Origin: an uncultured Actinomycetes bacterium
GTDB taxonomy: Bacteria > Actinomycetota > Geothermincolia > Fen-727 > JACVIW01
Reading direction: 5' to 3'
Assembly (NCBI GenBank): GCA_937127245.1
Contig: CAKZLU010000017.1
Coordinates: 3,452 to 67,451, forward strand
Length of the DNA stretch: 64,000 nt
The position numbers and the translations under genes are program-made. Position 1 is the first letter of the stretch. Every line of letters begins with the position of its first letter. Below are positions 7,737 through 57,143 of this stretch, one piece after another. The notes under the pieces were generated by a model that worked only from the letters and a program-made list of their open reading frames with translations, searched no databases and was not told where the DNA came from.

Positions 7737-8288
7737 ATGGTCCGTATAGACTACGCCAGAGACTCTCTCCTCATCGAGGAGGAGCTTTCCAAGGTCTTCA
7801 ACTTCATCTCCAGGGGCGCACAGTACGAGCGGTGGCACCTCGACTACCACCTCGCCGCTCAGATTATGGATATTAAGGAAGGTGGGGTAGGTTCCGTCTT
7901 CTCCATAGAGAACTCATCGGAGGCTTTTACCTCAAGCACGTGGGAAGGGTAGTGGAGTTCGAGCGCAACCGTAAGTTCGTGTGGCTCGGGAGGTTCGCTC
8001 TCTTTCCCCTGGTTTGGATCGGTACTGACTTCACGTTTGATGAACACAAAAAGGGCATCGTTATTACTGAGATACTCTACTTTAAGATGGCGCCCTGGTG
8101 GCTCATCCTCCTTTCCTTTCCTCGGCTTTAAACCTTACTTTACCCGCTCCGCATGCAAGAAACACATCACTGATGAGCTGACCGGCATAAAGAGGATAAT
8201 AGAGTCGAGGGATTACAACCCCGATGACATAGTTTATCCCCTCGAGGACACAAAGCTCATGTCACGGGTTAAGAAATACAAGGGATGA
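7737..8288 (+). pseudogene. SRPBCC (polyketide cyclase/START-like) family protein, split across three reading frames
   Basis: Three consecutive overlapping ORFs (7737-7952, 7940-8131, 8037-8288) in frames 0/2/0. Together they read as one SRPBCC-like protein, implying two frameshifts. Confidence 0.5.
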
Positions 8289-8322
8289 GAGCTGTACACG
8301 GCTTGAAATGTTTAAGCTGCTT

Positions 8323-8436
8323 CGCAGCATAAGATACTCTCTGTTCGACACTTGCTCAACGGCTCGGCTAAAAGTGTGTTTCTGAGTTCCTCGTATCGCG
8401 CATAAGATACTCTCTGTTCAACAATTGCTCAACGGC
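8323..8436. repeat. two ~37-41 bp direct repeats separated by a 36-bp spacer (CRISPR-like geometry, no cas genes)
   Basis: cGCAGCATAAGATACTCTCTGTTCGACACTTGCTCAACGGC at ~8323-8363 and cGCGCATAAGATACTCTCTGTTCAACAATTGCTCAACGGC at ~8397-8436. They differ by 2-3 mismatches. Confidence 0.5.
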
Positions 8437-8673
8437 GCAGAAGCACCAATCTGAGAAACCCTGGACAGCATGCTTAACATCATGGCGAATCAGACCGCAA
8501 GAGTGGAGGTATCTCGTTTTAACAGTTCTTCGCGGAGCTAAGGGATAAATCCCTGCGGGGAACAATTTTTCTCTTCAGCAAAAATGAGCAGTAATTACCT
8601 TCCGGATTTATCTCCGGATAAATTCCCGCGAGGAAATGGTTCTCTCTGCAAAGGGCAAGCCCGTTTTACCAGT

Positions 8674-9060
8674 TCACTCAGAGCCATGCTTTTTGTTCTT
8701 TTCACTCAAATTAAGGGGTCGCGCACTACTGTCAGACTTTTCAACCCATCTCGCACAGCGAATATCCCTCAGGGTCACCACCGAGCCCTGAACCTTACCA
8801 CGCCTGCTCTTGATAGGGGTGGATCGCACTGCCACCGGGACAAGTGATCCATATCCATTCCTTAAAATGCGCCATTCTTCAGAGCCGGATTCCGGGTCCG
8901 GAAGGAAATCGGTGGGTTGCGCGGCAAACAATCCTTCAAAGGTCTGATTGACTATCCTGTCTTCGGGCATCCCCAAAAGTTCAATTGCTACGGGATTCGC
9001 TTTTTGTATCAATCCTTTACCATCAACAAGGAATACCGCATCTTCGCTTCCCTCAAACAT
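8674..9060 (-). CDS. PAS domain protein (stand-alone or truncated sensor fragment)
   Basis: 128-aa ORF with a PAS-fold sequence (DAVFLVDGKGLIQKANPVAIELLGMPEDRIVNQTFEGLF...). No downstream kinase or output domain, so it may be a remnant. Confidence 0.5.
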   Translation of the reverse strand: MFEGSEDAVFLVDGKGLIQKANPVAIELLGMPEDRIVNQTFEGLFAAQPTDFLPDPESGSEEWRILRNGYGSLVPVAVRSTPIKSRRGKVQGSVVTLRDIRCARWVEKSDSSARPLNLSEKNKKHGSE

Positions 9061-9273
9061 CGCTCTTCCCAGGAATAAGGAAACTTGACTCGCAAAGTCA
9101 ATTCGAGGCCCGAGGAAATCCTATGAGAGCGTGAATAGGTTTTCCGTTTACCACTGTCTGAAACGAACTTCCCTTGAATTTTTTCATACAGAATACCGAA
9201 TGTCCGCTATCGGAATTGCTAATATACTCAAAATCTCTTAACTCGCAAAGCTTTATGAGACCCGCTGGGGTTT

Positions 9274-10402: not shown

Positions 10403-11061
10403 TCATTTGCGTTGCCCTCGTTTTTCCGCTCTAAGACCCCTTAAAACAAGGTCCAAAGCGATGTGGTAGAGTTCCGCTTCGCGGAGATCGGGATACTCCT
10501 GGTAAGCTTTGATGACGAACATCCTGTAAATGCTGAATATTACCTGAGTGGCGGGTCAACATCGAGTTTGCGGAAGGTTCCCTCCTCGATGCCCTCTAAG
10601 ATTATGTCGCGGATCACCTTTACAGCCTGATTCTCGACCTCAGGGTATCTCGTGCTCATCCGGAACAGCGCTATCAGTTAGGGGTCGTGCTGCATCAGCA
10701 TTCTCAATTCCGGGTGTTCGAGAAGGTAGGCGAAAGCCTCCCGCCCGAGCGCATAGAACTTCTCTGGCGCGTTCTTCTTCGAGACTTCCTTGTTGATCTG
10801 CTCCTGCCACTTGAACATCGCATACGCGCACGCTTGAAGATACAGGTCTTCCTTGTCCCGGAAGTGGTTGTAGAAAGTGCCGTTCGCTATGCGCGCTTCG
10901 GAGGCTATTTCATCGAGAGTTGTCTTTCGGTAACCGTTTCTGGCAAAAGTTTTAACCGCGGCTTCGAGCAGCCTTTCCCTTCCGCTCCCGGGCCTCCCCC
11001 TTCTCGGTTTTGCGTTTTCTTGATTCAGCCTGTTTGAACTGCCACCCATTTCGAGTCTCAT
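10403..11061 (-). pseudogene. TetR/AcrR family regulator interrupted by an in-frame TAA and a frameshift
   Basis: The N-terminal HTH ORF (10678-11061) ends HDP*. Translation continues in frame after TAA (10678-10680) as LIALFRMSTRYPEVENQAVKVIRDIILEGIEEGTFRKLDV..., then shifts frame to ...YRMFVIKAYQEYPDLREAELYHIALDLVLRGL (stop ~10403). Rejoined, it has the length and layout of a TetR ligand-binding domain. Confidence 0.6.
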
Positions 11062-11522: not shown

Positions 11523-12730
11523 GTGAAGAAGAAAGGAGAAAAAATGGAAGGGATAAACACACCCGAAACATCCGCTGACCCTAAGGAGTTAGGGTTTGAC
11601 CCCGACCGGCTTAAGAGCATGAAGCGCTCTATCCAAGCCGATATCGAAAAGGGACTCTACGATGGAGCTGTCTTCATAGTGGCACGGCACGGACAGATTG
11701 CCCTGCATGAGGCGACAGGAAAGACCGACCTGGAGAAAACACGGAATCGAAAACCGATGACATCTTCTTCATCAAGTCCATAAGCAAGCAATTCACAGCC
11801 GTGCGGGTCATGATGGACATCGAGCGGGGCAAAAACGGCTTCAACACGCCCGTCAAAGACATAATCCCCGATTTCGGCAAGAAGGGGAAAGAGCGCGTCA
11901 CGATAGGGCAGATACTGACTCACACGAGCGGTCTGAACAGCGAAATACCCTACGAGCTCCCCGTTGACCAACTCGGCAACATCGAGGCTGTAACAGCCGC
12001 CTGCGCGAACGAGCGCCTCCTGTTCACCCCGGGAGCGATTCTCGCATACAACAGCATCGCGGCATTCTCCATCCTCGGCGTCATCGTGCAGCGCTCTGAT
12101 GAGAAAGGACGTCCTTACCGCCAGATGCTCCGCGAGGATTTGTTCGAGCCGCTCGGAATGGTTGACGCTTATCTGGGTCTGCCCGACACCTCTCGTGAGC
12201 GAATCGTTCCCGTGGCGGTAAGAGACCAAACTCCCGGTCTCTTCGAGCCGATCCTCCTGGATGCAATGAGCTTCAGCGCAAACGAGGAGACTGAACTTCC
12301 CGCCGGGAGCTGCACATCCACCGCAACAGACGTATTCCGCTTCATGGAGATGATGCGCCAGGGCGGTGAGCTGAACGGCGTGAGGATACTGTCGCCCGCG
12401 ATGGTCAAGACAGCCACAACCTGCCAGACAGGCGACATGCGAAACCATCTGCTCGACTACATGAACGAGATGTACGGCTGGAATGATAGCGAACTTTCGC
12501 TCGGCATGGCCTTCTTTGTCAAAAGCGGCAAAGCAAGGGTTACTCCGCCTGTCACCACAACCTCACCTGGCACCTTTGCGGCAATGGGCGCGGGCTCAAC
12601 AATAACCTGGGTTGACCCAGAGCTCGACCTCACTTTCGTGTTCCTGTCAGCGGGACTCCTCGAGGAGGGGGCGAGCATAACACGCCACCAGCGCCTTTCG
12701 GACATGGTGGTAGCGGCAGTGTCGGATTGA
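11523..12730 (+). pseudogene. beta-lactamase-fold serine hydrolase (class C / PBP-like), frameshifted
   Basis: The upstream ORF (11523-11783) is the N-terminus. The SxxK active-site motif (DDIFFIKSISKQFTAV) sits in a third frame that joins directly into the downstream ORF 11801-12730 (MRVMMDIERGK...HTSGL). One indel near 11750. Confidence 0.7.
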
Positions 12731-12752
12731 GTCTTTCAAGGGGGCGATAAGA

Positions 12753-13537
12753 TTGCCGGATTACAGAGACAAGTTCAAGGACAGGGTCGCGCTCGTGACG
12801 GGAGCAGCTTCCGGCATAGGGCTTGAAACCGCGCGGCTGTTCGTGGAAAACGGGGCGAATGTCATCGAGGCGGACCTCGACGAGGAGAGCCTGAGGAAAG
12901 CCGAGTCCGATCTTGGGAAGCGGTTTGCCGGCAAGGTGTGCGACGTCTCAAATGATGAGGACGTAAGGGCGCTCGCAGATTACATCGAGAACGAACGCGA
13001 CAGGCTTGATGTCATCGTGAACAACGCCGGGGTGGGGCGGCTGGCGACGGTCGATCAGATGACCGAGGAGGATTTTTGCTTCCATTACGACGTGAACGTG
13101 AAGGGTCCGATGCTAATGGTGTCCCGATGCCTGAATTGCTTGAGGAAATCGGACTACGCATCGATCGTGAACGTGTCATCGAGCGCGGCCCGGGCGGTCC
13201 TCGGAGGGCTTCACTACCTCTACTCCTCTTCAAAGTAGCGTTTCTTGCATACGCGGAGCACCTTGCGCGCAACCTCCCAGGGATCCGCGCGAATACCATC
13301 CTGCCCGGCTGGATCGACACACCCATATACGAGCGCGCAGGTGTCTCGCGCGAGTTCGTGGAAGAGGTTTACGGCAGGGTGATCCCTAAAATTCCCGCTG
13401 GGAGAATAGGGAATCCACGCGATGTGGCGGAATGCATCGTTTTTCTATGCTCGAAAGCCGCATCATACGTGAACGGGGCTGCTCTCGATGTCGGAGGGGG
13501 ATTGCTCACCGGCGTGGACTGGGCTTGGCCTTTCTGA
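12753..13537 (+). pseudogene. SDR family oxidoreductase, frameshifted at the catalytic YxxxK
   Basis: ORF1 ends ...NVSSSAARAVLGGLHYLYSSSK*. ORF2 (other frame) continues VAFLAYAEHLARNLPGIRANTILPGWIDTP. Rejoined, this gives a canonical SDR catalytic segment with a single-base indel near 13237. Confidence 0.7.
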
Positions 13538-14600: not shown

Positions 14601-14755
14601 GATTAACCTCCTAATCTACACCAAAGTGCCCAATGGTTTGACTAAGCATCGCCATCACCCAGCATCAAGCCTTTTGGCACTGCTATCTTATCAAGAAGCA
14701 TCGCTTTTTAAGACCGCCCCGCCGTGCCGTATCCAAGCACTTTGAAACCACGCTC

Positions 14756-17425: not shown

Positions 17426-17446
17426 AAGCGGAAAGTGTTCCGCTTC

Positions 17447-21610: not shown

Positions 21611-22190
21611 ATGACCACTCCGATCTCGCCTCTGAACTTCTGTCTTGCGGCGACACACCTCTGCTTCAAAGCATTTTTGCTCACATAAGATAATTCGGCA
21701 TTTAGACTTCATTTCTTTTCCCGTTAGCGCTATTTACCGATAATCACTTTAAGGCTCCCCTACACGTCTTCCCGTAAGAGAGGTATTCGCGCGTGGAGGT
21801 GAAAACGAATCAGCGGGTGATAATAGGAATCATCCTTTTTCCTTCAAAAGACGAAGACATTTCCCCAATTCTGCCTGTTAATTCATCTATTGGAAATAGT
21901 AAACATTCTTCTTCCTTAAAAAGACGGGGCTCAAAGCATGTGAAGGTGAAGAGATATATCCACCACGCTCACGACGGTCTGGTACGAGGCACTAGGCATG
22001 TTAGGGTGAATATGAATGGGTTCACGGTTATGCCCGTTTTGGACACAAGAAACCGAGTAGGACCTCACAAAACCGCATCAACCTGTTAAATATAAATACT
22101 TACCTTAGTTTCCCCGCCAAAAGAGCGAGTATGACGAAGAAAATCCGCGCCCTGAGCTTCGCGTCATTCCCTAAGCGAAAAACTTCTTAC

Positions 22191-23870
22191 ATATCGGAAC
22201 TCCTTTCGAGCCTCTGCTCAATCTGATAAGGCGTATACTCAGAATTCTGCGATTTAACAAGCGCCGCAGTCATCGGGCACGCCATGGAAGTGCAGAAGAG
22301 AAAGTCATAATCTCGTGGATGGGAAAGATTGTTCAGAATCAAAGTATAGGTGAGCGTCGTGGAGATAATACTCGAACCGGGCGCGGAGACGTCAACGCTT
22401 GCGTTGAAAGCTGAAAAATCGGTTTTCTAATCCCGATTTGTGGTGGCGCCAACCCCTGTCACTTTTTCGCGGCAAGCCAGATAATTCATGACCGAATTAC
22501 AGGTATTTCCCGACGAGGCCAGGACAACAACCGCTCGATTGTGAGCGTAATCGACCGCATACTGGAGCGCATGGGAAAAGGATGATGAGCCGAGAGTCAT
22601 ATTCAAAACATTTGCACCGTTATACGCTGCATGGAAAACAAGCCAAACCAATATCCGCTACGCTGCCCGATCCATTTGAGCCAAGACCTTTAGCGTCATT
22701 ATCCTGGCGCTTGGACAGATACCAGCAATTGTCGTCATGTTATCAGTCTCGGCAGCGATTACGCCCGCGACATGCGTTCCATGTGGGCTCTCATCCAGGG
22801 GGTTAGAGTTAGGATTTGACCTCAACCAAAGGTCTGAATAAGGAACATTTTACCAGGTGGATCTTCATTGTATACAAACTGTTCTCCCCCAGCATACTTG
22901 TCAGCAGCGGCAACCATGCCCACCGTAATGAGGTATTGGTAATAATTGCTTGTGTTCAGATAGTTTATGGAAATTACAAGAAAATAAGTGGTGCCGTTCT
23001 GAAGAGTAACGGAATTTGAAAACTCTTTGTATACTTCAGTCAACGAATACCCCCCTTCGGATGCAGAAATTGAGAATGAGGCAAGGTCTGAACCCGCAAG
23101 ACTGGACCTAACGGAAACAGTAATTTCAGAGGTGGGATTGCTGATCTTTCGAAAACGGAAGCCGGCATGGGTGAGGGCCTGACCCGTGCCGGTTATTGAC
23201 TGCGCGACCATCTGGCTGTTCGCATCAGATCCGCAATTAAAATAACCGACACTTGATGTCAGGAATATGGCAAACCAGTTATATCCAGGAACAATTTTGG
23301 AATCCAATTCCGGATGGCTCGGGTCAATTCCAGTATCTATCACCGCAACCATGGGTTGTCCGGCGCTACCATCTTCAGAGTTCCAAGCTTCCAGCGCATC
23401 AGTATCGGAATCAAATGTCCCGCTGACCCCTTGTATCGTCTGATCCGCATTCCTTAAACCCCATTGATTGGGCAGTTGAGGATCATTCGGAGTGTGAAAA
23501 ATTGTCACTATATAATTTAGTTCTGCGTATTCCATGAAAGGATTGCCCTTGAGAAGCTTCAAGGCTTCGCCCACAGACGTGTCAGTTTTCAGTCAGTAGA
23601 GTTGAACTCTATCACTACCCTTTTGTCCGATATTTCTAAGCACTGAGCGAACGCGAGCAGTGTTCTTCGCTGAATCCTTGTCTTCCTGCGGAGTGTCTTT
23701 TCTGAACTTAATGATATCCTGAACTTGATGATTATTTCTCCCGGGGCATATTCCTCGGCTGATAGGGAGAATTTTGCCGCTTGCACACGGTATTTGACTG
23801 CTCAGGTATTTTGAGAAGCCGCCTCCGCGCTTTCCACCCCAAGCACATTGAAAAATAAGCAAACCATGAG
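22191..23870 (-). pseudogene. S8 subtilase paralog, degraded (in-frame stop plus at least 3 frameshifts; truncated after catalytic Ser)
   Basis: Pieces span several frames: signal-peptide-like MVCLFFNVLGVESAEA...*, propeptide GEIIIKFR, catalytic Asp region VAVIDTGIDPSHPELD, His region HGTHVAGVIAAETDN, and the Ser region TSMACP. Each is homologous to the intact subtilase at 33982-37425. Confidence 0.65.
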
Positions 23871-24125
23871 AGATAAGGCGCTAAGAAGGGAAATAGCCCG
23901 GGCATTGGTCAGGACAATTTCTTGTTTCGAAAAAGTTTCAATTATTTTCCATTCACTAAAAATCTTTGACCCTTATATTTTTTCCTTTTGATTATCGCAT
24001 TGGTTTCTCCCTTATTCTTCATACATAATTAGAAACGAACCTGCGTGGCCTTAGAAACACCCGTTCCCCCTGGTATTTTTCATTTTCGCGCGAACACCCC
24101 TTTTGCCCAGATTGCTCGTGCTAAC

Positions 24126-25156: not shown

Positions 25157-26146
25157 TCACCACGGTGGAACAACCCCCCTCCTCCACCAGAGCTCAAGGT
25201 CGATCCAGGTTTGCGGGTAATTCTCATCATCGTTCAACTCGTCTTTTGCATACTCAATAGCCTGTTCGGGACCGAAGATGTCCCCATACTCTACTCCTGT
25301 CGATTCAATTGGCACTATATCGCCGCTCTCCGGAAGCTGTATTGCGGGCAGAGCATGACCGGGTATGAAGATGACGTAAGACTTAACTCCTACTGCCTCC
25401 ATCATGGATGCTACACACAGCAATATCAAGGCACGTACCAGCTTTTCTGTTTATGGTGTCCTTCGGGTATTGGACGTACTGTGCCGCCTCCCCGCCCAGA
25501 AGGCGTAAGGCTCGTGGACGTATCTCACACGGTGGACATACAGTGTGCGATAAACAGCGCAAAGAGCCTCAATCGCCTCCTCATCGCTCGAGGAAGGCGC
25601 AAGTCCCCCTGTGGCAAGCTACGCAAAAGACTTTGTCGTCTCCTCGTTCGGCGTGCAGAACGCCGCGACGAAGGGATAATTCTCGTCCCTGTCTGCCGCT
25701 GTGACCTTGTCCTCCTCGCGAAGTGATGAGAACGTGTAATCGTTTCTTCCGAGAAAGAATATCTTGTGGCGCTCCTCGACGGGCTTGGAAAGACCTCTGT
25801 ACTCGTGTTTTATCACAAATTCCGCCGGGGTTCTCGTTGTTATACCCATCACCTTTTCGCCGGCGAACACCGGGTAATAAAAGTCACGCATGGTCTGCCC
25901 CGGAATTATCTCGGGGTAAGTGTCGTTCGAAGTCCAATCAGTGTAGCCAATCACCCGGTATGAAAGCTTCAAATCATAGACGGGAATCTTCCCCATGTTC
26001 TTGATTACTGTTTTCCCAAGCCAGAAACTCCAGGTATCATCACCGTACACCTTGTACGCGCACGTAAGTATCTTCTCCCGAGATTGCAGCTCAAATTCTA
26101 ACCTGACCTTGGACGGGTCATACGAAGCGCCAGCTCGCGTGAGCAT
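25157..26146 (-). pseudogene. transglutaminase-like cysteine protease-fold protein, frameshifted
   Basis: The active-site Cys segment (KAGTCLDIAV) and the His segment (FIPGHALPAIQ) lie in different frames around 25430-25620. N-terminal part 25619-26146, C-terminal part 25157-25429. Confidence 0.5.
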
Positions 26147-26742: not shown

Positions 26743-26842
26743 TGTGCATTTCACTTCATAGGACGTCTCGGTTCAAATTGGAAAAATACATCTAACGCGT
26801 CCGTAACGTCGAGGGTCAGTGACAATTCTTAAAGGTGAAAAA

Positions 26843-28027
26843 ATGGTATCACGCACTCAATCGGAGGGAATCAACTTCGAACTGACCCCGGAGCAGCAAA
26901 TGGTCCAGAAAACGGCTGCCGATTTTGTCGATAGAGAGATCCTTCCGAAAATCACGGAACTCGACCGAAAGCACATCCTGAGTTTCGACATAATCCGGGG
27001 CATGGCAAAACTGGGGATGCTCGGCGCCCCGATACCCGAGGAGTACGGGGGCTCCGGACTTGATTTCATCGCCACCGCTTTGATTTGCGAGGAGATCGAG
27101 CGAGGAGACGGGGGATTTAGAACTCTGCTTTCGGTACATCTTGGTCTCAATTCACTTACACTTCTAAAATTCGGCACCGAGGACCAAAAGCGGAGATATC
27201 TCATAGACCAGGCGCGCGGCGATAAGATTGCATGTTTCGGGCTTACGGAACCTGGCGCGGGCTCTGACGTGGCGTCAATCGAGTCAACCGCGCGAAGGGT
27301 CGGTGATCGCTATATTCTAAACGGACAAAAGACATGGATTTCTTACGCGAACGTGGCGGACCATTTCCTCGTCTTCGCCAAGACAGACAAGAACGCCAGT
27401 CACAGGGGTATTTCCGCCTTCCTCTTGGACCGCTCAATGGAAGGTATAGAAACAAGGGACATAGAACACAAGCTCGGGGTTTGGGCGGGCTCCACCGGTG
27501 AGATATTCTTGTCAGACGTGGAAGTACCCGTGGAAAATCGCCTGGGGGAAGAAGGCGAGGGATTCAAGATAGCGATGTACGCGCTCGACATGGGGAGGTT
27601 TACGGTCGCGGCAGGGGCGCTTGGGACCATCCGCGCCGCTCTTGATGCGTCAATAAAATATGCCAATCAAAGAATAGCGTTTGGAAAACCCATCGGTCGA
27701 TACCAGTTCATTCAAGAGAAAATAGCCGAAATGGTGAGGGGACTTGAAACATCCCGACTTCTCGTATACAAGGCGGCATGGCTTAAGAACAAGGGAGTTA
27801 AAAATACGCTTGAAACCTCTCTTGCCAAATGGCATGCGACGGAGTGCGCGTTCAACGCGGCTCACGCGGCGGTGCAAATACATGGTGCCTACGGGTATTC
27901 GGCCGAGTATCCGGTCGAAAGAATTTTCCGCAACGCGAGGGCTCCTTTAATCTATGAGGGTACAACCGAAATTCACAAGATGATCCAGGCAGAACACGCC
28001 CTTGGATACCGGAAAGTCAACGGCTAA
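26843..28027 (+). CDS. acyl-CoA dehydrogenase
   Basis: Canonical ACAD N-terminus (FELTPEQQMVQ) with a C-terminal catalytic-base region (YEGTTEIHKMIQ). The frame opens at 26819. Confidence 0.85.
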   Translation: MVSRTQSEGINFELTPEQQMVQKTAADFVDREILPKITELDRKHILSFDIIRGMAKLGMLGAPIPEEYGGSGLDFIATALICEEIERGDGGFRTLLSVHLGLNSLTLLKFGTEDQKRRYLIDQARGDKIACFGLTEPGAGSDVASIESTARRVGDRYILNGQKTWISYANVADHFLVFAKTDKNASHRGISAFLLDRSMEGIETRDIEHKLGVWAGSTGEIFLSDVEVPVENRLGEEGEGFKIAMYALDMGRFTVAAGALGTIRAALDASIKYANQRIAFGKPIGRYQFIQEKIAEMVRGLETSRLLVYKAAWLKNKGVKNTLETSLAKWHATECAFNAAHAAVQIHGAYGYSAEYPVERIFRNARAPLIYEGTTEIHKMIQAEHALGYRKVNG

Positions 28028-28196
28028 ACAATTTGGCGCCTTAAGCTCTTTTTAATCGAGATGAAAACGCCTGGCGAAATGATATCTCTGCGGCAATAAC
28101 TTTAATCGTTCCAGGAACCGACTCGAACGCCTTTGCTCTTTTACAAAGCAATACAGCGAAAGGTATGGTCCGGCTCAGTTTTTAAAGGAGGGTATT

Positions 28197-28982
28197 ATGG
28201 AATTAGAAGACGTCATCTATGAGGTGAAGGACGGGATAGCCACAATCACAATCAACCGCCCCGAGCGCCACAACGCCTTCAGGTCAAAAACCCTCGACGA
28301 GCTAACCCAGGCTTTCGAGGCGGCGGAGGAAGACAGGACCGTCGGTGTGGTCGTTCTAACCGGCGCGGGCGAACGCGCTTTTTGCGCGGGTGGAGACATC
28401 TCGGAGATGGGCGCCCTCGATCCCCATGTTGGAAGAAAATTTCTGGGAAAGTGCCTGAAACTATCCAACACTATGAGGTCTCTTTCCAAACCGATAATCG
28501 CGGCAGTCAACGGCTATTGCCTGGGCGGAGGCAATGAGTTAAACCTCTTATGCGACCTGACCATCGCATCTGAAAACGCCGTCTTCGGTCAGACGGGACC
28601 GTCGGTGGGGAGCGCGCCCATCTGGGGAGGAACTCAGATGCTTCCACGCGTTGTCGGCGAAAAGAAGGCAAGGGAAATGTGCTTCCTTTGCCTGCGATAC
28701 ACGGCAGAGGAAGCGGAGAAAATGGGGCTTTGCAATAAGGTCGTCCCGCAAGAAAAACTGATGGAAACGGCGCTGGAGTGGGCAAACAGAATTCTTGACA
28801 TGAGCCCGCAATCGATAAAACTCACGCGAACCTCAATGAACTTTGAATCAGACCTCCTATACAGTTCATTCACGCATGGACGTGAGATGCTCGCGCTCGC
28901 CTACGGCTCGGAGGAGCTGACCGAGGGGATGAAATCATTCGAAGAGAAGCGCAAACCAGATTTCCGAAAGTTCAGGAAGTAG
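28197..28982 (+). CDS. enoyl-CoA hydratase (crotonase family)
   Basis: TINRPERHNAF, VVVLTGAGERAFCAGGDI, IAAVNGYCLGGG motifs. Confidence 0.85.
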   Translation: MELEDVIYEVKDGIATITINRPERHNAFRSKTLDELTQAFEAAEEDRTVGVVVLTGAGERAFCAGGDISEMGALDPHVGRKFLGKCLKLSNTMRSLSKPIIAAVNGYCLGGGNELNLLCDLTIASENAVFGQTGPSVGSAPIWGGTQMLPRVVGEKKAREMCFLCLRYTAEEAEKMGLCNKVVPQEKLMETALEWANRILDMSPQSIKLTRTSMNFESDLLYSSFTHGREMLALAYGSEELTEGMKSFEEKRKPDFRKFRK

Positions 28983-29021
28983 GAATATGTTAAGCCGAAC
29001 AGGCGGAAGGCTACTGCTGGT

Positions 29022-29894
29022 TTGAACAAGGAGAGCCAGATGGATTTTAAAAAGATTCTCGTGGTCGGAGCCGGAGTGATGGGAAGAGGAATCGCCCAAG
29101 TATTCGCAAGCCGCGGATATGAAGTTTTATTGATGGACATCTCAAAGGAGTTAGCGAAAAAGGGTGTTGAGAACATAGAAAAATCGCTAAACCACGCGGT
29201 GGAAAAGGGGAAGATCGAAGCGAGCATGAAGATGGAAATAATAGGAAAGATCACGCCCACCTCAGACTGGTCACGCGCTGCGGAAGCCGATTTTGTGGTT
29301 GAAGCGGTATTCGAAGACTTGGAAGTGAAAAAGGAGGTCTTTGCAAAGCTTGACGAAACCTGCCGTCCGGAAGTCATCATTGCCACCAATACTTCCTCTC
29401 TACCCATAACCCCAATTGCCTCCGCGACCAGAAGACCGGATAAAGTCATCGGTATGCACTTTTTCAATCCGGCACCGGCAATGAAACTTGTTGAGGTAAT
29501 ACGGGGACAGCTCACAAGTGATGAGACATGCCGGACAGTGGTCGAACTTGCAACCCAGCTCGGCAAGACTCCTGTTGAAGTGAACGATTGGCCTGGCTTT
29601 GCCATGAGCCGCATTTTCTGCGTGATGATCAACGAGGCCATATTTTGCCTATATGAGGGGGTGGGCACTCCCGAGGCAATAGATAATGTAATGAAACTCG
29701 GCGCCGGTCACCCCATGGGACCCCTCGAGGTAGCCGACCTGCTTGGTCTTGATATTGTCCTGCATATAATGGACATTCTCTACAAAGAGTTCGGCGACCC
29801 CAAATACCGAGCCTGTCCGCTTTTAAGAAAAATGGTTGCCGCGGGGCAGTTGGGAAAGAAGAGCGGGAAGGGATTTTATACCTACAAGCAATAA
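29022..29894 (+). CDS. 3-hydroxyacyl-CoA (3-hydroxybutyryl-CoA) dehydrogenase
   Basis: NAD-binding VVGAGVMGRGIAQ with a C-terminal 3HCDH domain (GFAMSRIF, GAGHPMGPLEVADLLGLD). Confidence 0.85.
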   Translation: MNKESQMDFKKILVVGAGVMGRGIAQVFASRGYEVLLMDISKELAKKGVENIEKSLNHAVEKGKIEASMKMEIIGKITPTSDWSRAAEADFVVEAVFEDLEVKKEVFAKLDETCRPEVIIATNTSSLPITPIASATRRPDKVIGMHFFNPAPAMKLVEVIRGQLTSDETCRTVVELATQLGKTPVEVNDWPGFAMSRIFCVMINEAIFCLYEGVGTPEAIDNVMKLGAGHPMGPLEVADLLGLDIVLHIMDILYKEFGDPKYRACPLLRKMVAAGQLGKKSGKGFYTYKQ

Positions 29895-30428
29895 CTAATT
29901 TTCATAAAGGATAAAGTAGGAAAGTTGGAAAAGAAAAGCGTGAAGGGATTCTATTCCTACCGTTAAGCTTCCAAATAAGGCTGGAAAGACAAGGGCCCGT
30001 CAAGGAACAGCACTTTCCGGGCAGTGCCGCTCATGGTCGCAAGAAATCGTGGTACTGAAAAAAGGATTGGCCTATCCCTAAAATGCTTAGGGAGATCCAA
30101 AGACTATTCTTTCGTGAGCTCCAGTCGGTAACCTCGAAGGAAATAAACCGGACGGGAAGACTTTATCTGAAAAGTTCGCACTTTCATAAGGAAAAACACG
30201 TTTGCGCTTGGCATTCTTCTTTCAGATGAGGCGCGAAGACTCAATCCGAATACCGTGTCCACCTGTTTAAATGAGCGAGATTGAGAAACGCTTTTTCTTG
30301 TACCAATAACGTTTCAAGTTCTCCTCTTTCTTCCTCTCAAATCTTTAAGTAAGTCTCTAAGCGAAACCAACACTGTCTGTGGACAAGCATTACCTATAAA
30401 ATAAAGAAAAAACTCCGGGGTCTTAAAA

Positions 30429-30887
30429 ATGAGCGAAGAGGCAAAGATCTGGGGTATTGAAACCAAAATGCAGGAAGAAGAATTTAAAAGAATCATCTGC
30501 GAGCGTGTCACCGATGCACCCTTTTACAAACACATGGGTTTTTCTGTGATTGGACTCGGTCCCGGCGAGGCGCACTTGAAAATGAAAGCAAACCCTCGTG
30601 TATGCGATGAGTCAGGCGCGGTCGAAAGAGGAGCGATTGCGGCTTTGGCGGATGCTGCATCCGGCGTTTCTGCGGCGACCGTTTTCCCCAAATCCTCTAA
30701 GCGGGTGGTCACGGTTGAGCAAAAAGTGACTTTCATGGCGCCTGTAAGCGGAGGTGAACTGGTCGCGATCGGCAAAGTTCTTTTCTCAGACGAAAATATC
30801 GTCGTATCCGAGGCAGTTGTAAGAGATCGCGAGGGGAAAATTGCCGCAAAGAGCCTTGCCACTTTCACCGTTGTGTCAAGGAAATAA
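30429..30887 (+). CDS. PaaI-family hotdog-fold thioesterase
   Basis: 152 aa with a hotdog thioesterase layout (HMGFSVIGLGPGEAHLKM...GAIAALADAASG...VAIGKVL). Confidence 0.75.
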   Translation: MSEEAKIWGIETKMQEEEFKRIICERVTDAPFYKHMGFSVIGLGPGEAHLKMKANPRVCDESGAVERGAIAALADAASGVSAATVFPKSSKRVVTVEQKVTFMAPVSGGELVAIGKVLFSDENIVVSEAVVRDREGKIAAKSLATFTVVSRK

Positions 30888-31053: not shown

Positions 31054-32084
31054 TCAACCTGATGGAGGGACCCTGTAGAATACGCCCTTCTTCGTTTGTT
31101 CGGCAACAATCTTCTTTTCCTCAATGAGACGTGAAAGAACCTTCATAACCTCCAGCTCGCTTGCTTCGGCAATCTTAGCTATTTCAAATAGCCTGCAAGG
31201 TCTGATCCTTAGAACACCCAGGATTTTTTCCTCGTCAATAACACCGATGTGCCCACCGCGAGAATCGGGTTCGCTTTCCGTGAGCACCTCCGCTCTCACC
31301 CCGTGCTCACGGAAAAATTCGGCAATCTCAGAAAGCCTTTCTTCCCCTGACGATTTTGCGTAACCCTCTGAAGCTGGTCTTAAGACCGTGTTCAAGTGGA
31401 CGATATCGGGTGCTATGTCCCGGACAAGCGCGGCGATTTTTCGATACTTTCATCCCCCGAGTTAATGCGGTCAATGACCATGATCTCAAGCCATAAACGA
31501 CCCTTGTAGCAGGACGAAAACCGCATAATGCCTTCAACCATTTTCTTGAAATCTATTTCGCGGCAAGGCCTGTTTACCTTCTCAAACATCCGCTCATCAC
31601 CGGCGTCAAGCAATGGGAACACCAGGTCAGCCATCATGCACGCTTGAGCGACTAGTTGTTCCCACAAAAGCGATCCGTTCGTCAGCACCGCCACAGGTAT
31701 TTCCGTGATTTCCTTGATGCCTGATATCACAGCCGAAATTTCGCTGTTCAATGTTGGCTCGCCCGAACCCGCGACAGTTATGTAGTCGATACGACTTCCT
31801 TCGGCTTGCCTAAAGAAGAAGGCTTCGAGGCCAGAGATAACTTCGTCCGCGCTTATGTAAGGGGCTATGCGGGCGGTCTTCACGGTCGTCCTCCCGAGTT
31901 GGCAGTATATACAGTCGTAATCGCAGGTTTTCATCGGGATAATATCAACGCCGAGGGAAGCGCCCAGTCTGCGCGAGAAAATCGGACCGTATATGAGCTT
32001 TTTCACCGATTCGTAAGGCGTTGTCATTATCATTCCTCCGCGGTTGTCCTCAAATTTACTGAACGGAAAACCACGTTTGGGCAA
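31054..32084 (-). pseudogene. radical SAM protein with a C-terminal winged-helix-like region, split by a frameshift near 31400
   Basis: ORF 31413-32084 has a CDYDCIYC (CxxxCxxC) radical SAM core and a GSGEPTL glycine-rich motif, and ends abruptly. The adjacent ORF 31054-31395 in another frame supplies a plausible C-terminal domain. Combined length is about 336 aa. Confidence 0.5.
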
Positions 32085-32960: not shown

Positions 32961-33134
32961 GCATCTCCCTCGAGTCGATTTCAGGTGTTGTAGGAGTTTG
33001 GGTCTTTCTTGCACCGCAACCCAATCTCGCTGGGGCAATCTCAATGAGCGGCGCAAAAAGGGCAATGAAGATAACCTTTGATCTGCGCTTTGACGTAGGT
33101 CTCCGGTAAGGGTTCCACCGGGAGTGGAGATTGA

Positions 33135-33563: not shown

Positions 33564-33981
33564 ACAAGTACCCTCTACTCTTCGTCACCCGATCGTTCCT
33601 TAAGTCTGCCGTAATAAGATTTCGCTGTGTATAATACCGCCGCGGGATTGTGACCGGTAACACGGTCCTTTGCGACCAAAACAGTTGTAAAGCCTTCTTT
33701 GAACTTGAAGAAAAGAGAATCGTGACCCACGTAAAGTCCGATTAAAACGTTTAAATCACAGCCCTCTTTGTTTAAGATCAGCCCTGTGCTATCGGATTAC
33801 AGTATGATTCGTTCGTTTTTGGCAATACTTTTTCGCAGTCCCGTATCTCGAAGCTTTCCTTGGGCTCTCCCCCAACTTCACAGCAGACCGATACCACCTC
33901 AAAACCTCTGCTTTTTGCAATCCCCGCAAAGACCCTCGCTTCATTTTCGAATGATTGGGGTTACCCTTGCAGCTGAAATCT

Positions 33982-37752: not shown

Positions 37753-40269
37753 GTGTATTTAAAAGAGTGCGTTTTTGCATTAGGAAAGGAGAAAAGGAAA
37801 ATGAAAAAAACAATCAAATCAGTATCTCTGCTTTTGGCACTTCTTATGCTTGTTCTGTGCGCTTTCATCCCTGGTTTGGCTGCCGAAAATGAAAGCTCCA
37901 CAAGCGTTCTTGAGAAAGGCACAGCTCGCTTAGACCCCGCCCAAGAACCAATAGCCCTCAACACAGGAGAGGTGATAGTCAAATTCGAGGAGGGTGTAAC
38001 AAAAGACCGCATGTCAGGGATATGCTCTGGCGCGGGGGCATCCTCCATATTGAAAAGAATCGGACCGGAAACTTAGAGAACGTATCTTTTAAAGTTGAAA
38101 CCGGAAGTGAGTTTGAGCAGCGCCATTGAATCCCTTAACGCAAGTGACGGGGTGGCGTTTGCCGAACCAAATTACTTAAGGAAATTATTGTACACTCCTT
38201 CGGATCCTGATTTCCCAATACAATGGGGTCTTCATAACACCGGGCAAACCATTGGGGGTGTTCCGGGAACCCCTGATGCTGATATCGATGCTCCAGAGGC
38301 ATGGGATGTTGAAAAGGGAAGCAACTCCACTGTATATGTTGCCGTGATCGATTCAGGAATTGATCTTAACCACCCCGACCTTGACGGAAGGATCCGCGTG
38401 AACACCTACGAAATCCCAGGGAACAACAAGGATGATGAAGGTAACGGATATGTTGATGACGTAAACGGGTACAACTTTGCCGGGATTTCACAGTACAGAT
38501 ACTATTATTACGTTGGAAGTACTATATACTATACGTTCTGGTACTTTGGTCGCTATACAATAACGCAGATGCTCGCCCAGTCTTTCACCGCGCGCGCGAG
38601 CAGCGGTCACAAGCAAAAGCTCACGCACCTGGGCATTATGCTCAGCAAAATCGGAAATCCAACGTCCACTATAACGGTTTCAGTCCGTTCTTCTCTTTCC
38701 GGTTCTGACCTCGCATCCTTTACCATCTCCCCTGGTGAGGTAATAAGCAGGGAGGTCTACAAGAGATTTTCCAAAGAACTCTACCTAACACCCGGGAGCA
38801 CTTACTACTTCGTTTTCCGTACCGACAGCGTTGACTCCTCGAACTACTATCATCTAGGCCATAATGCAGGCAGTGTTTCAGAAAATTACCACACCTACCA
38901 CGAGGGGACTGAATGGCAGTGGAACGGCTCAGACTGGGTTGAATGGCCCAAAGACGACTTCTACTTCAGGACAAATCCTTACTTCTATCCCCATGACAAC
39001 AACGGTCACGGAACGCACTGCGCAGGGATAATAGCCGCGGAGAATAACAATGCGGGTTGTGTTGGCGTGACACTTGGCAACAACGTGAAGATCATGCCCA
39101 TAAAAGTCGGTGACTCGAGCGGCTGGCTGAGAGATGACCATATTTTGGAGTCGATTTATTATGCCGCCGATAACGGCGCGAAAGTCATAAGCATGAGCTT
39201 TGGTGGTTCGGTGTATTCAAGCGCAGAACAGGATGCTGTCAATTACGCCTACAACAAGGGAGCAATTCTTTTTGCCTCCGCCGGAAATTCCGGTGATTCC
39301 ACCATGCGATACCCCGCAGGTTACGCGAACGTTGTAGGGGTCGGTGCGACAACCAACAAAGACGAGAAAGTAACATTCTCAACGTACAACTCGAGCGTTG
39401 ATTTATCAGCACCCGGAAAGGACGTCTATTCAACAATGCCGACATACCCGGTTTGCGGAAATGATTTAGGCTACACGCAGAATTACTCATACATGTCCGG
39501 GACCTCCATGGCTTGTCCGATGGCAGCCGGGCTTGCCGCGCTTATACGCTCAAGGAACCGCTCCTGGACGGCGGCTCAAGTTCAAACTGCAATGCAGAAC
39601 AACGCCGATGACCTTGGGACACCGGGCAGGGATGACTACTTCGGTTACGGGAGGATAAACGCCAAAAGGACGATCGACACCGTTCCCCTTCTGCCCGTCC
39701 CGGCAATCTCAACCATAAACCCCACAATGGGATACGTGCGCTCAGAGGTAACAATATCAGGAAAGAATTTTGGATCGACCCGCGGAAGCTCTTACGTAAA
39801 GTTCGGGACAAAGAAGGTCACAGCCTATGTATCCTGGAGCTCCACGAAAATCAAGGTGAAAGTTCCTGACGGTGTCTCGGGAGAAGTGCCTGTGAAAGTA
39901 TATACACTCGCTGGAGGGTCCAACTCAAAAGTCTTCAGCGTGAAACCAAAGATAAATGCGATATCACCGATTTCGGGTTCCATCGGCTCCTACGTGACGA
40001 TCTCCGGAAGGGGATACGGCTCTCTGAGAGGTACCTCATATGTGACATTTGGAAGCAAGAGGGTATCAACTTACTCAAGCTGGACTGATACAAAACTAAA
40101 AGTGAAGGTACCCTCAGGAATTCCAAAGGGTAAGACAACCACAAAGGTGACAACATCGGGAGGGGAAAAACCTCAAAGCAATAATGGAAAAGATGTGAGC
40201 CATGGAATTACAACTGAAGATGCTATAGCGGAGCATAACCCGCATAAGCAATCCACGAAACATATGTGA
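37753..40269 (+). pseudogene. S8 subtilase paralog with an in-frame TAG (38074-38076) in the propeptide; catalytic domain plus two TIG domains
   Basis: ORF 37753-38076 encodes the signal peptide (MKKTIKSVSLLLALLMLVLCAFIPGLAA) and propeptide (GEVIVKFEEG). It is in the same frame as ORF 38095-40269 (DSGIDLNHPD, HGTHCAGIIAAE, GTSMACPMAAG, two TIG-like domains), separated by a single TAG. Homologous position in the paralog: GKIGPRDKKDIEVLKLKPGVS. Confidence 0.6.
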
Positions 40270-53853: not shown

Positions 53854-54271
53854 TGCGTCCGCTGGATGGTATCTCCAGCCTCCTCCCTTCGTTCATCCAT
53901 GCCGCAACATAGTAATTCAACCTTTAAGACAATTATGAGTTATCACACGCCTATTAGATTTATATTGAAACCAGGACGCGTCATCGCACTTAAACGGTTT
54001 AATTTACTTATTTATTTTTACGGAAATCAATCGCGGAAAACTCATTTGGTCTCAAGCATTCTTCTTTTGATGAGAAAAATGTATAATCTGTGAAAATCGG
54101 TCAACAAAAACTGATGTTGCGCTCTCTGGAGAACGTAACAAAGTTTTACAAACAACGGGCAATCGGGGGGTTATCCTGAAACAACAAAAGCTTCCTTTCT
54201 GGGCAAAGTTAGCTTACAGCTCCGGCTCGGCGGGATTTTCTCTTATAGACAGAATAGTAATCACCTGGCTT

Positions 54272-55492
54272 ATGTACTATTACGTGACAGGGGTCGGGGA
54301 TGGAAAAACTCTCGTCGGCCCAGCTGCGTTCGGCGCGATAATGCTTTTTGGAAGAATAGTTGACGCGATAGCCGACCCGCTCGTTGCCCTGTGGTCAGAC
54401 AATCTCGAAAGCAAACGCGGCAGAAGGACCCCATTTCTTCTTGCGGGCGGCATAACCTACGTCGTAATCTACATCGCGCTGTTCCTCCCCCCTGTCAAAA
54501 GAAATTCTCCCTGGAACGCCGCCTATCTTGCCCTTTTTCTCGGTTTGTACTTCTTCATATTCACAGTGTACGTTTGCCCTTATCTTGCTCTTCTGCCGGA
54601 AATCGCGCGGACCAACAAGGACAGGGTTGACCTTTCCACGATAAAAGCGGCTTTCAGCCTTTTTGGAGTCGCTGTTGCCATGATAGGTTCCGGCTTACTC
54701 ATCGGAGCGTTGGGTTTCCACGGCATGCTGATTGTCCTTGGAATATTTTCGCTGGTGCTTCTCTACATCCCGCTTTTGGTGAAAGAAAAAGAATATGCGC
54801 ATGCTCAACCCGCAACATTGAAACTGGTAAGAGCTATTAAAACAACTTTCAAAAACCGAGCTTTCCGCATATATCTGGTCGCCAATGTTGCTTTCTGGCT
54901 TGGCTTTAACATAATCACGCTGGGAGTCCCATTTTATGTGACGGTTCTGCTCGGAAAATCAGAAGAAGCCACAGCGCTTTACTTTGGGGTGATACTCGGA
55001 GTGTCCGCCCTCGCCTTCCCCTTCGTGAACATATTCGCAAAAAGATATGGTCTGAAGCTTTCCATGATTGTCTCGATGCTTCTGTTTGTCATCATGCTCC
55101 CTCTCATCTACTTTGTGGGGAAACCCGCTGTGGGTCTTTCCAAAGAAATGTTCGCTCTTCTGGTAATGGGAATAGCCGGAGTTCCGCTCGCTGGGCTTTT
55201 CGTTGTGCCCGATGCGATAGTTGCTGCCGTGTCCGACCTGGAGGAAAGGCTCTCTGGGGAAAGGCGCGAGGCGATGTACTTCGGCACCCAGGGTTTCATT
55301 CTCAAAGCCGCCATGGGACTTTCGACACTGCTTACTGGCTTACTTTTCCAACTGTTCGGCAAGAGCACCGCGCGCCCGCTCGGGATCCAGCTCACCGGGG
55401 TGGTTGCGTCTCTGTTCATACTTGCCGGTCTCCTCTCTTTCCTGCGGTATCCCGAAAAGGAAGTAAATGAGGTGCAGCTTAGGCAAACATGA
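54272..55492 (+). CDS. MFS transporter, GPH (glycoside-pentoside-hexuronide:cation symporter)-like
   Basis: Twelve-TM pattern with GPH-like loop motifs (SKRGRRTPFLL). The open frame extends upstream to 54140 (...KLPFWAKLAYSSGSAGF) with no canonical start there. Confidence 0.7.
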   Translation: MYYYVTGVGDGKTLVGPAAFGAIMLFGRIVDAIADPLVALWSDNLESKRGRRTPFLLAGGITYVVIYIALFLPPVKRNSPWNAAYLALFLGLYFFIFTVYVCPYLALLPEIARTNKDRVDLSTIKAAFSLFGVAVAMIGSGLLIGALGFHGMLIVLGIFSLVLLYIPLLVKEKEYAHAQPATLKLVRAIKTTFKNRAFRIYLVANVAFWLGFNIITLGVPFYVTVLLGKSEEATALYFGVILGVSALAFPFVNIFAKRYGLKLSMIVSMLLFVIMLPLIYFVGKPAVGLSKEMFALLVMGIAGVPLAGLFVVPDAIVAAVSDLEERLSGERREAMYFGTQGFILKAAMGLSTLLTGLLFQLFGKSTARPLGIQLTGVVASLFILAGLLSFLRYPEKEVNEVQLRQT

Positions 55493-55914
55493 TTCTTTTG
55501 TTGACCCGAGGGAAGGTGGCTCACCTAAAATGCGAACCGCTTTGGGAAAACGTTACTCGACGAGCTTTCATGCCGCTGATGCGTGGCGTTGACGACATCT
55601 ACACGAACCACACTATACTCTGTGTTTTTTCTGCCGCTGATGCGCGGCATGGACACAGCAAAACGGTTCAAGGTTAGCTATCCAATAATTTGAAGGGGCA
55701 AACCTTCAGGGCTAAAATCCAGATAAGCAAAAAAGAGCGAAGGAAAAGCGCTTCCGGAATGGAGCCATCAAAGAGAAATGTCTTAAAAGAAAACCCTTGC
55801 GAAAACGGGTAAGCCACCCATAATTAATAAAATTTCCCCGCTTATTCTTTTTCTATTTGTCTTATGCTTCTTTCTTTTATTTCAAATCCCGGTTGCTGGC
55901 AGTGAAGTGCCTTT

Positions 55915-57143
55915 TTATTCATGCGGCGGGGTGGGAGTGAACCTGTACCCGGACGATCTGGGTGCGGATTTTCAGTCGTCGTGCGCCACGCTCGAAAGGG
56001 TTACAGACCTCGGGTTTCGTTTTTTAAGAACTGATTTTCCCTAAAGCGAGCTTGAACCCAGCCCTGGAAGATGGGACGAGAACAGATTCGAGTGGTTAAA
56101 GGGGTATCTTGAGATTGCCGAAAGTAGAGGTTGTTTTAGGAGCCGCGCCAGAATGGGCTCGCGCGCTGTACCGCGAAAATCCCACTTCTTTTTTCCGCAG
56201 ATTTTGTAAATATTCAAAGGAGGTCGCCAGAAAGTTTGGCATTCACGTCCATTATTATCAAGTGTGGACGAAGCCATCAGCCCCCTCGATTTCGTGCTTC
56301 CATGGGATGACCCCAAAGTTTTCTGGGCGTGTTCTCTTAGAGTCAAAGCGGCGGACGCAAGTTCAGAGATAATCGTAAATTTAATTTCCTCAGTGCCCTG
56401 GTGGGAGCTCATTCTCAACTACTGGATGCTTACGCCTGGCGACCGGATAGACATCATCGGTCTCGACCATTATCCCGGAACCTGGTATTTCGGCAAATAC
56501 TCAGACTGGGCTCCGCTTGAGAGAATCTGCGCCAAAACCCTTGACCGACACGACCCATGCTTCAGGAAACACGCCGTACAGGAAACCGGATTTTCCACGT
56601 TCCTGCCCTTTTTTCACAGCGAGGAGAATAAAAAAGTGGATCGAGACATCACTTGGAGCGGTCAAGAGGATGAATTGACAACCACAATCTCTCATCACCA
56701 TCTAAAATCCTTTCCGTCTGTTTTTACGAGCTTTATGACGCGGGCTTCAAACCTGGCTTCTGGGTCGAGGACTACTTCGGGATTATCAGAAAAGATAGTT
56801 CCGAAAAGCCCGGTTATCAAAGCCTTAAAAGATGCGTGAGCGATTTCGGCTAAGACGCCGAGCCGCCGGTTGGCTCGGTTCTCATAAACGGGGGAGCCCC
56901 CTCACGCTTTCGAGACGCGTTAGGCTCAAGATAGAGGCAAGTGATTTTTCGGGTGTTTCGCAAATGTGTGTCTCAGACAACGAACCCGCAAGACCTGATT
57001 CCTGTCGGTGGCAGCATTACGACGAGAACCTGAGATGGACACTTAACCCAGGACCCGGATTAAAAACGGTTTACGTGCTCCTTGAGGATTATTGGGGTAA
57101 TACGTCCTCGCCGCTTTGCGCAAGCATTCTGCTGGTGAGATGA
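55915..57143 (+). pseudogene. TIM-barrel glycoside hydrolase-like gene fragmented by multiple frameshifts
   Basis: Overlapping ORFs in three frames (56109-56372, 56264-56839, 56832-57143 and unlisted fragments from ~55915). They carry GH-like segments (IDIIGLDHYPGTWYF, GFWVEDYFGIIRKD). Confidence 0.4.

Follow-up and report, generated by a model that had tools for sequence, protein, structure and literature searches.

Do the many broken reading frames in a metagenome-derived contig record gene decay in the organism, or errors in the assembled sequence? This question is raised by a stretch of 64,000 nucleotides of contig CAKZLU010000017.1 from an uncultured bacterium (assembly GCA_937127245.1), here called the window. 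An original prediction made from the letters alone had named ten genes in it that are interrupted by frameshifts or in-frame stop codons and had offered pseudogenisation and assembly error as the two explanations. Using stop-to-stop maps of the open reading frames (ORFs) and three-frame threading, we found all ten genes to be disrupted where they had been placed. The tally of lesions was too low: several of the genes carry additional lesions, and an eleventh pseudogene, the remnant of a DUF1847 gene, had been missed. The lesions recur in other public assemblies that represent at least four haplotypes, and of the two explanations it is pseudogenisation that stands while the artefact falls. We conclude that the disruptions are very probably genuine pseudogenes fixed in the natural population of this bacterium. 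Gene decay is a known process, and this locus is a new example of it, not a new kind of system.

The evidence that carries this conclusion comes from contigs of the same population, which we reached through exact-protein look-ups in public assemblies. Three contigs of JGI 3300010288 correspond to window positions 1-6999, 7023-19893 and 19573-64000 with 0 gaps, and five contigs of JGI 3300025104, also with 0 gaps, cover 7103-14557, 31093-36592, 38129-51183 and 55422-64000. A 71-kb contig of the NCBI metagenome-assembled genome (MAG) GCA_036733065.1 (0 gaps) and a 63-kb contig of ENA ERZ27245459 (1 gap) each cover approximately 7-24.5 kb. These contigs are 99.8-100% identical to the window and jointly span all of it. 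Private single-nucleotide polymorphisms (SNPs) in each assembly distinguish at least four haplotypes. Among the compared assemblies there are 0 indel differences at the lesions, and the pseudogene state is uniform. The same lesions are present in every assembly that we fetched and therefore reflect real gene decay rather than sequencing error.

This agreement can be followed gene by gene (coordinates in Table 1). The SRPBCC sequence recurs in other assemblies with one SNP at 8101, the 127-aa N-terminal fragment of the TetR-family regulator has identical records in NCBI, JGI, Logan and ENA, and the lesion of the beta-lactamase-fold gene is common to four other assemblies. The first subtilase is identical in the JGI and ENA contigs except for a SNP at 23459. 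The lesions of the transglutaminase-like gene are present in a JGI contig that aligns with 0 gaps, and those of the radical SAM gene, the metallo-beta-lactamase-fold (MBL) hydrolase gene (with a SNP at 32854) and the DUF1847 remnant (with a SNP at 33641) are found in both JGI samples. In the JGI contigs the second subtilase appears as separate gene calls of 107 aa and 724 aa. The glycoside hydrolase sequence is identical in two further contigs, and its 191-aa fragment is recorded in NCBI, Logan, ENA and GEM.

Table 1. Disrupted genes of the window, with the positions of their lesions, and the two intact features discussed with them. Positions are those of the window.
Feature	Position	Strand	Lesions or content
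SRPBCC/AHSA1-like pseudogene	7737..8285	+	2 frameshifts: ~7893-7900 (net -1) and ~8108-8120 (net +1, within a CCTTT CCTTT repeat)
TetR-family regulator pseudogene	10406..11061	-	TAA 10678-10680; frameshift ~10545-10560
Beta-lactamase-fold (class C / esterase-like) hydrolase pseudogene	11523..12730	+	one net -1 frameshift within 11711-11780
Short-chain dehydrogenase (SDR) pseudogene	12753..13537	+	one net -1 frameshift 13230-13238, directly 3' of YSSSK
First subtilase (S8) pseudogene	22190..23880	-	5 in-frame stops (TGA 23802-23804, TGA 23593-23595, TAA 22850-22852, TAG 22658-22660, TAG 22427-22429); 2 frameshifts (23699-23732, ~22855-22870); 3' truncation
Transglutaminase-like pseudogene	25160..26146	-	TAG 25619-25621; frameshifts ~25470-25485 and ~25420-25430
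Beta-oxidation-type cluster, intact	26819..30887	+	acyl-CoA dehydrogenase, enoyl-CoA hydratase, 3-hydroxyacyl-CoA dehydrogenase, thioesterase (Pfam matches)
Radical SAM pseudogene	31054..32084	-	single frameshift
Metallo-beta-lactamase-fold (MBL) hydrolase pseudogene	32207..32962	-	3 in-frame TGA (32875-32877, at a Trp position; 32624-32626; 32564-32566); 1 frameshift, ~32815-32822
DUF1847 remnant (eleventh pseudogene)	33578..33971	-	N-terminal ~65 profile positions gone; frameshift ~33778-33785
Subtilase paralogue, intact, 1109-1161 aa	33982..37467	-	Pfam Peptidase_S8, TIG, DUF5719, Fervidolysin pro-domain
Second subtilase pseudogene	37753..40269	+	single in-frame TAG 38074-38076
Clan-A-like glycoside hydrolase pseudogene with possibly Ig-like C-terminal domain	55787..57143	+	2 TAA (56042-56044, at a Trp position; 56851-56853); 5 frameshifts (~56115-56125, 56266-56272, 56628-56640 in A6, 56665-56680, 56900-56910)

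The single indel difference between the assemblies is a 1-bp deletion (TT to T) at 14560 that occurs in the ENA ERZ27245459 contig only. It falls in codon 14 of an otherwise intact enoyl-CoA hydratase gene (13836-14600, - strand), which is called there as 238 aa versus 254 aa. This deletion is either a new polymorphic frameshift or an error of the ENA assembly.

The rival explanation under which the genes are truly intact and the breaks are consensus errors, caused by low coverage or homopolymers, draws on the origin of the sequence in a metagenome. Cooley and Wright (2024) found that public assemblies commonly contain spurious pseudogenes, among them ones with internal stops, whose occurrence varies with assembler, platform and coverage, and that near-identical genomes often differ substantially in their pseudogene counts (PMC11017572). 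On a single assembly such artefacts look the same as what we observe here, with frameshifts and internal stops in canonical genes. They differ in that they vary between near-identical assemblies and scale with the overall error, whereas the lesions of the window are the same in five assemblies that have different SNPs and whose only indel difference lies elsewhere, at 14560. By the criterion of Cooley and Wright, agreement of the five assemblies at the lesions means that the lesions are not spurious.

The kinds of lesion and their distribution also bear on this explanation. We counted approximately 32 lesions in the 11 pseudogenes, comprising 13 in-frame stops (TAA 4, TAG 4, TGA 5), 17 frameshifts and 2 terminal truncations. 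By frames read by eye, 12 of the shifts are net -1 (with a 17-bp duplication included) and 5 are net +1, an excess that would fit the usual deletional bias. Three frameshifts do sit in A5, A6 or C5 runs, as homopolymer errors would. The context of the junctions does not bear out a general role for such errors, which had been suggested: a run of at least five bases occurs in only 3 of the 16 frameshift windows, and the longest run is 6. Nor do consensus errors readily explain 13 stop substitutions, a 17-bp duplication, two large truncations and the concentration of lesions in few genes. In the clustering analysis, 28 lesions fall on 10 of 49 genes where approximately 20 affected genes are expected if lesions are uniform over coding bases, and 10 or fewer genes were affected in 0 of 200,000 uniform simulations (P<5e-6). 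This over-dispersion upholds the earlier argument that a uniform random indel rate does not account for the pattern. Thus, we consider it highly improbable that the breaks are errors of assembly or sequencing.

The broken parts had been predicted to rejoin into canonical domains, and from one end to the other the repaired frames do match intact homologues or full-length models. The SDR is the cleanest of the disrupted cases. Its two fragments correspond to positions 1-147 and 147-235 of adh_short_C2, and joining them after YSSSK, the motif behind which a break near 13237 had been proposed, gives a single match to positions 1-235 of 236 with 175.5 bits. The repaired beta-lactamase-fold protein matches Pfam Beta-lactamase over positions 5-313 of 329 with 176 bits, and its large fragment alone covers 44-313. 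In this gene the frameshift had been thought to split the SxxK motif; we find SISK whole in the downstream frame. For the TetR-family regulator, in which both the TAA and the frameshift had been correctly recognized, TetR_N is matched with 59 bits and the TetR_C models bridge both the stop and the frameshift in the repaired protein. Residues 7-246 of the 252 in the repaired MBL hydrolase align to PDB 7dck_A (E=6.6e-43). Two other repaired proteins have matches close to the cut-off: the Pfam AHSA1 match of the SRPBCC protein spans the first junction at 22.1 bits, which is exactly the threshold, and the DUF553 match of the transglutaminase-like protein bridges both frameshifts at 22 bits (cut-off 20.5).

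For the two broken subtilases we used the intact subtilase paralogue of the window as the reference. The first of them is 37-41% identical to its two paralogues over residues 34-613 (tblastn). One of its frameshifts is caused by an imperfect 17-bp tandem duplication, ATCATCAAGTTCAGGAT / ATCATTAAGTTCAGAAA on the - strand, and dropping one copy restores the frame of the pro-domain, PGEIIIKFRKD. This gene has lost its 3' end, and with it the TIG domains and the C-terminus of the catalytic domain, and the conserved Gly preceding the catalytic Ser has been replaced (GTSMA to CTSMA). In the second subtilase the TAG, found at the very position where it had been predicted (38074), cuts the signal peptide and the beginning of the pro-domain off from the remaining protein. 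The alignment of this gene to the intact paralogue, at 56% identity, is continuous over the TAG. One of the long ORFs that had been counted as intact, that of 2.2 kb, is the downstream part of this interrupted gene (38095-40269).

The glycoside hydrolase gene is among the most damaged. Single fragments gave no match in a Pfam search. When the frame is repaired, residues 14-357 of the catalytic part align to an intact homologue of 359 aa (E=8e-91). This alignment crosses the first five of the seven lesions, and the last two lie downstream in the C-terminal domain. The motifs W-D/N-E (WDE) and E-T-G are retained. The label itself comes from sub-threshold Pfam similarity to GH42 and GH1 only. The C-terminal ~95 residues (~56850-57140) form a domain that is repeated up to 40 times in giant metagenomic proteins of 1,000-6,000 aa; one of these carries the Pfam bacterial Ig-like domains Big_7 and Big_13, which may or may not coincide with the matched domain.

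The DUF1847 remnant came to light in a six-frame scan of the gaps between genes, as two stretches matching Pfam PF08901 (E=1e-22) directly downstream of the intact subtilase. Its frameshift lies in a G run, and the conserved GLCVGHD reads GLYVGHD, so that the conserved Cys is lost. The same six-frame Pfam scan of approximately 10 kb of otherwise empty DNA found no older remnants beyond this one and an orphan PAS ORF. The long intergenic stretches without domains are probably still older wreckage.

The frameshift of the radical SAM gene is consistent with the loss of one base from an A run that is now A5 (T5 on the + strand, 31437-31441). After repair, 95-97% of the protein aligns to intact homologues of 310-330 aa, all invariant residues are retained, and the junction reads SIEKIAALV against a consensus of SIEKIxEL. 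A further rival explanation is recoding, in which the genes would be functional through programmed frameshifting, stop read-through or reassignment, or as split genes whose products reassemble. In principle the single-lesion radical SAM gene, with its A run and every invariant residue kept, and the second subtilase, with its one TAG, could be rescued at a low level. The rest of the locus is hard to reconcile with this. All three stop codons occur in-frame in broken genes and all three terminate intact genes (TGA 15, TAA 13 and TAG 8 among 36 intact genes), which excludes stop-codon reassignment; the genetic code is standard. The shifts go in both directions at sites without a common motif, up to five frameshifts are found in one gene, several genes carry 4-8 lesions together with truncations, and conserved residues have been lost from the first subtilase (GTSMA to CTSMA) and from the DUF1847 remnant (the Cys). 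Rescue of these genes by recoding is thus exceedingly unlikely.

The frameshifts might instead be reversible switches of phase variation, produced by slipped-strand mispairing at short repeats in genes for surface or secreted proteins. Several of the affected products are secreted (the subtilases and the glycoside hydrolase), and a few junctions lie in short runs or in the CCTTT x2 repeat. Set against this, no junction has a long simple-sequence tract, the maximum run being 6, and length polymorphism at the junctions is absent across the five assemblies. The lesions also hit cytoplasmic enzymes and a regulator, and close to half of them are nonsense codons. We regard switching of this kind as barely credible.

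Genuine decay accounts for these observations, and the set of broken genes is informative about its course. The set consists of two secreted subtilases, a glycoside hydrolase, a transglutaminase-like protein, the MBL- and beta-lactamase-fold hydrolases, an SDR, an SRPBCC protein, a DUF1847 protein, a radical SAM protein and a TetR-family regulator. These are accessory functions; the genes for beta-oxidation, ABC transport, phosphoglucomutase and flavoprotein/FeS oxidoreductases are unbroken. Selection would have been relaxed on the accessory genes, each of which would have acquired a first inactivating lesion and then further stops, small indels, a duplication or terminal deletions. We can order the pseudogenes by probable age on this basis. 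The youngest would be those with a single lesion (the radical SAM gene, the SDR, the beta-lactamase-fold gene and the second subtilase), followed by an intermediate group with 2-3 lesions (the SRPBCC gene, the TetR gene, the DUF1847 remnant and the transglutaminase-like gene). The oldest, with 4-8 lesions and lost conserved residues or ends, would be the first subtilase, the glycoside hydrolase and the MBL hydrolase.

A close parallel is found in 'Streptomyces philanthi', the defensive symbiont of beewolves, which has 36.7% pseudogenes genome-wide and a coding density of 78%, and whose most eroded classes include regulators, glycoside hydrolases and protease genes (PMC8092579). As in 'S. philanthi', decay in the window falls preferentially on accessory genes, regulators, glycoside hydrolases and proteases while core metabolism is intact, coding density is lowered and pseudogenes are interleaved with intact genes; 'S. 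philanthi' is actinobacterial, as the organism of the window possibly is. 'S. philanthi' differs in being a known host-restricted symbiont that has mostly one frameshift per gene, validated by read coverage. In the window, nonsense codons almost match frameshifts in number, several genes have multiple lesions, and validation comes from the agreement of assemblies. The bias toward accessory functions and this parallel therefore lead us to infer that relaxed selection on dispensable functions is the most economical mechanism.

Other pseudogene-rich bacteria resemble the window in part. Mycobacterium leprae is a pseudogene-rich bacterium that has recently become host-restricted. For Sodalis glossinidius a pseudogene content of approximately 40-50% has been reported (PMC7067036, PMC8092579). 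The window shares with these two species a high density of pseudogenes, a low proportion of intact coding sequence and a mixture of young single-lesion and old multi-lesion pseudogenes. They differ from it in being host-associated, in the genome-wide documentation of their decay and in the many insertion sequence (IS) elements of some lineages, whereas no IS element was found in the window.

Free-living bacteria provide a different comparison, with background pseudogenes making up a few per cent of genes. The mutational origin of these pseudogenes in small indels, nonsense mutations and truncations is the same as in the window. In contrast, approximately 22% of the genes of the window are affected, several times the usual level, and multi-lesion pseudogenes are kept rather than deleted. 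Kuo and Ochman (2010) report selective removal of the youngest Salmonella pseudogenes (PMC2916853).

Several observations weigh against genuine decay or narrow what can be concluded from it. The support consists of agreement between assemblies, and the third-party NCBI MAG, the ENA MEGAHIT contig and Logan may re-use JGI reads, so that there are perhaps only two independent read sets. The evidence spans the 64-kb window and approximately 4 kb of flank, a small part of the genome. No close sequenced relative was found that would allow orthologues to be compared or the ancestral state to be established; among the pseudogenes the radical SAM gene was the one searched, and the best homologue of its repaired protein is 52-53% identical. 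The family assignments of the SRPBCC, transglutaminase-like and glycoside hydrolase genes come from weak or threshold-level profile matches. Lastly, transposases, integrases and IS elements are absent from the Pfam matches of the called genes and from the six-frame gap scans of the window. IS elements often accompany early genome erosion, but are not obligatory.

We counted approximately 50 genes in the window, of which ~39 are apparently intact and 11 (~22%) are pseudogenes. Intact coding sequence makes up 61% of the DNA, pseudogenes 18%, and the remaining 21% has no recognisable domain; by comparison, a 20-kb locus of a relative is ~92% coding according to its gene table. The GC content of the window is ~50%. 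The intact genes include those for an M20 peptidase, a flavoprotein / FeS / flavoprotein oxidoreductase trio, an SDR, two enoyl-CoA hydratases, an ABC transporter, phosphoglucomutase, MFS transporters, the subtilase of 1109-1161 aa and a 924-aa DUF5719 protein. The intact beta-oxidation-type cluster sits amid pseudogenes.

This inventory bears on how far the decay extends. One alternative is that it is local, and that the window is a flexible accessory region, a 'gene graveyard' of acquired or duplicated genes in an ordinary, gene-dense genome. Relatives have no synteny with the window beyond the acyl-CoA dehydrogenase / thioesterase / hydratase core, which points to a variable neighbourhood, and many of the neighbours are lineage-specific secreted or hypothetical proteins and members of paralogue families (subtilases, DUF5719). 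In the left 7 kb of the window the genes are densely packed and all intact, and the 4 kb past its right end also looks intact. However, the pseudogenes fall into four separate clusters that extend over 50 kb and are interspersed with genes of housekeeping type (beta-oxidation, phosphoglucomutase, ABC transporter), they come from unrelated families, and neither an integrase, a transposase or a tRNA nor any other island boundary was seen in the window. Scans for tRNA, tmRNA and Rfam RNAs, which could mark island boundaries or recoding RNAs, detected none in the window. We consider a purely local graveyard rather unlikely. Early erosion of the whole genome, with ~15-25% of genes pseudogenised and ~60% intact coding sequence in a deep-branching, uncultured environmental lineage, is a possibility that we put forward tentatively. 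Such a state of erosion has so far been described almost exclusively in symbionts and pathogens that became host-restricted recently.

Searches for relatives place the organism only broadly. The highly conserved acyl-CoA dehydrogenase has many metagenomic homologues at 80-86% identity, of which those with a named source are from MAGs of Actinobacteria/Actinomycetota, such as RBG_19FT_COMBO_54_7, and the best named match of the repaired radical SAM protein is from an 'Actinobacteria bacterium'. On these two genes the organism is tentatively Actinomycetota-related. The literature gave no matches to the sample and assembly accessions that could have indicated habitat or taxonomy. An exact-peptide scan of the GTDB representative genomes with the repaired radical SAM protein gave no match, and a profile scan of the same genomes found homologues of at most 47% identity from many phyla; the best homologue cited above came from a search of 5.8 billion proteins. 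At 90% identity among ~15 billion proteins, the window proteins that we looked up stand alone or pair only with variants from the same population. On contigs that carry acyl-CoA dehydrogenases of 84-86% identity, synteny is limited to the dehydrogenase / thioesterase / hydratase core, and none of the broken genes had an orthologue that could be read there.

In one relative, GCA_936414285.1, a response regulator is called as two adjacent genes, a receiver of 101 aa followed by a Trans_reg_C protein of 115 aa (positions 1823-2520 of its contig). Here too, in a related lineage, a gene may have been split.

Variation among the assemblies showed further features. Hand-counted scattered SNPs amount to ~0.36 per kb in intact coding sequence, 0.76 in pseudogenes and 0.62 in intergenic DNA, from uneven assembly coverage and small numbers; the direction is suggestive of relaxed constraint. 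Clusters of SNPs occur within the subtilase/DUF5719 paralogues (19675-19790, 36578-36874, 37258-37270, 38215-38219 and 39546-39573), with for example 28 differences in 300 bp against ~1 per 1-5 kb elsewhere. This suggests gene conversion between paralogues or a mixing of paralogues in assembly. Two JGI contigs break and overlap at 19573-19893. The contigs of all four other assemblies stop at 6938-7103 (6938, 6999 / 7023, 7023 and 7103), a break that only the window's own assembly bridges. No repeat of the 6938-7103 segment was found elsewhere in the window. GC content is 53.6% to the left of this break and 49.4% to the right, and the genes on the left are all intact and tightly packed. The join in the window is probably correct because the contigs abut in the same orientation.

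A few other features of the window were recorded. The 924-aa protein, the C-terminus of the intact subtilase and a 694-aa polysaccharide deacetylase of a relative have in common a repeated DUF5719/ASRT-like beta-sandwich module, which is typical of a family of large secreted proteins in this lineage (window 18938-21712 and 33982-37467). The orphan PAS ORF (128 aa, 8674-9060, - strand) contains only this domain, is flanked by ~0.6 kb of featureless DNA and has no neighbouring output domain; a sensor protein may have decayed and left this ORF as its final legible fragment. Two candidates for additional pseudogenes were rejected. The ORFs at 15570-16139 and 16061-16444 are instead one intact small membrane protein and a shadow ORF. 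The flavoprotein at 2647-4212 has a partial Pfam match, yet it contains no in-frame stop or change of frame, and at 521 aa it is equal in length to the best-matching solved oxidoreductases.

These results indicate that the high density of broken genes in this metagenome-derived sequence very probably reflects biology and not assembly error, and that near-identical contigs from other public assemblies provide a cheap, read-free test for pseudogene calls. Automatic annotation of this MAG over-counts genes, with fragments called as separate ORFs, and would over-state the proteolytic, glycosidase and hydrolase capacity of the organism. If the decay does extend over the genome, broken genes could lower the quality score of such genomes, and, speculatively, this could be why the radical SAM protein has no match among GTDB representatives; the locus would then also caution that quality filtering leaves such genomes under-represented. 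Genome-wide decay would make this bacterium a rare environmental case of ongoing erosion outside the known symbioses, useful for the study of gene loss, and would suggest that it has a hidden association with a host, depends obligately on a partner or has passed through a severe population bottleneck.

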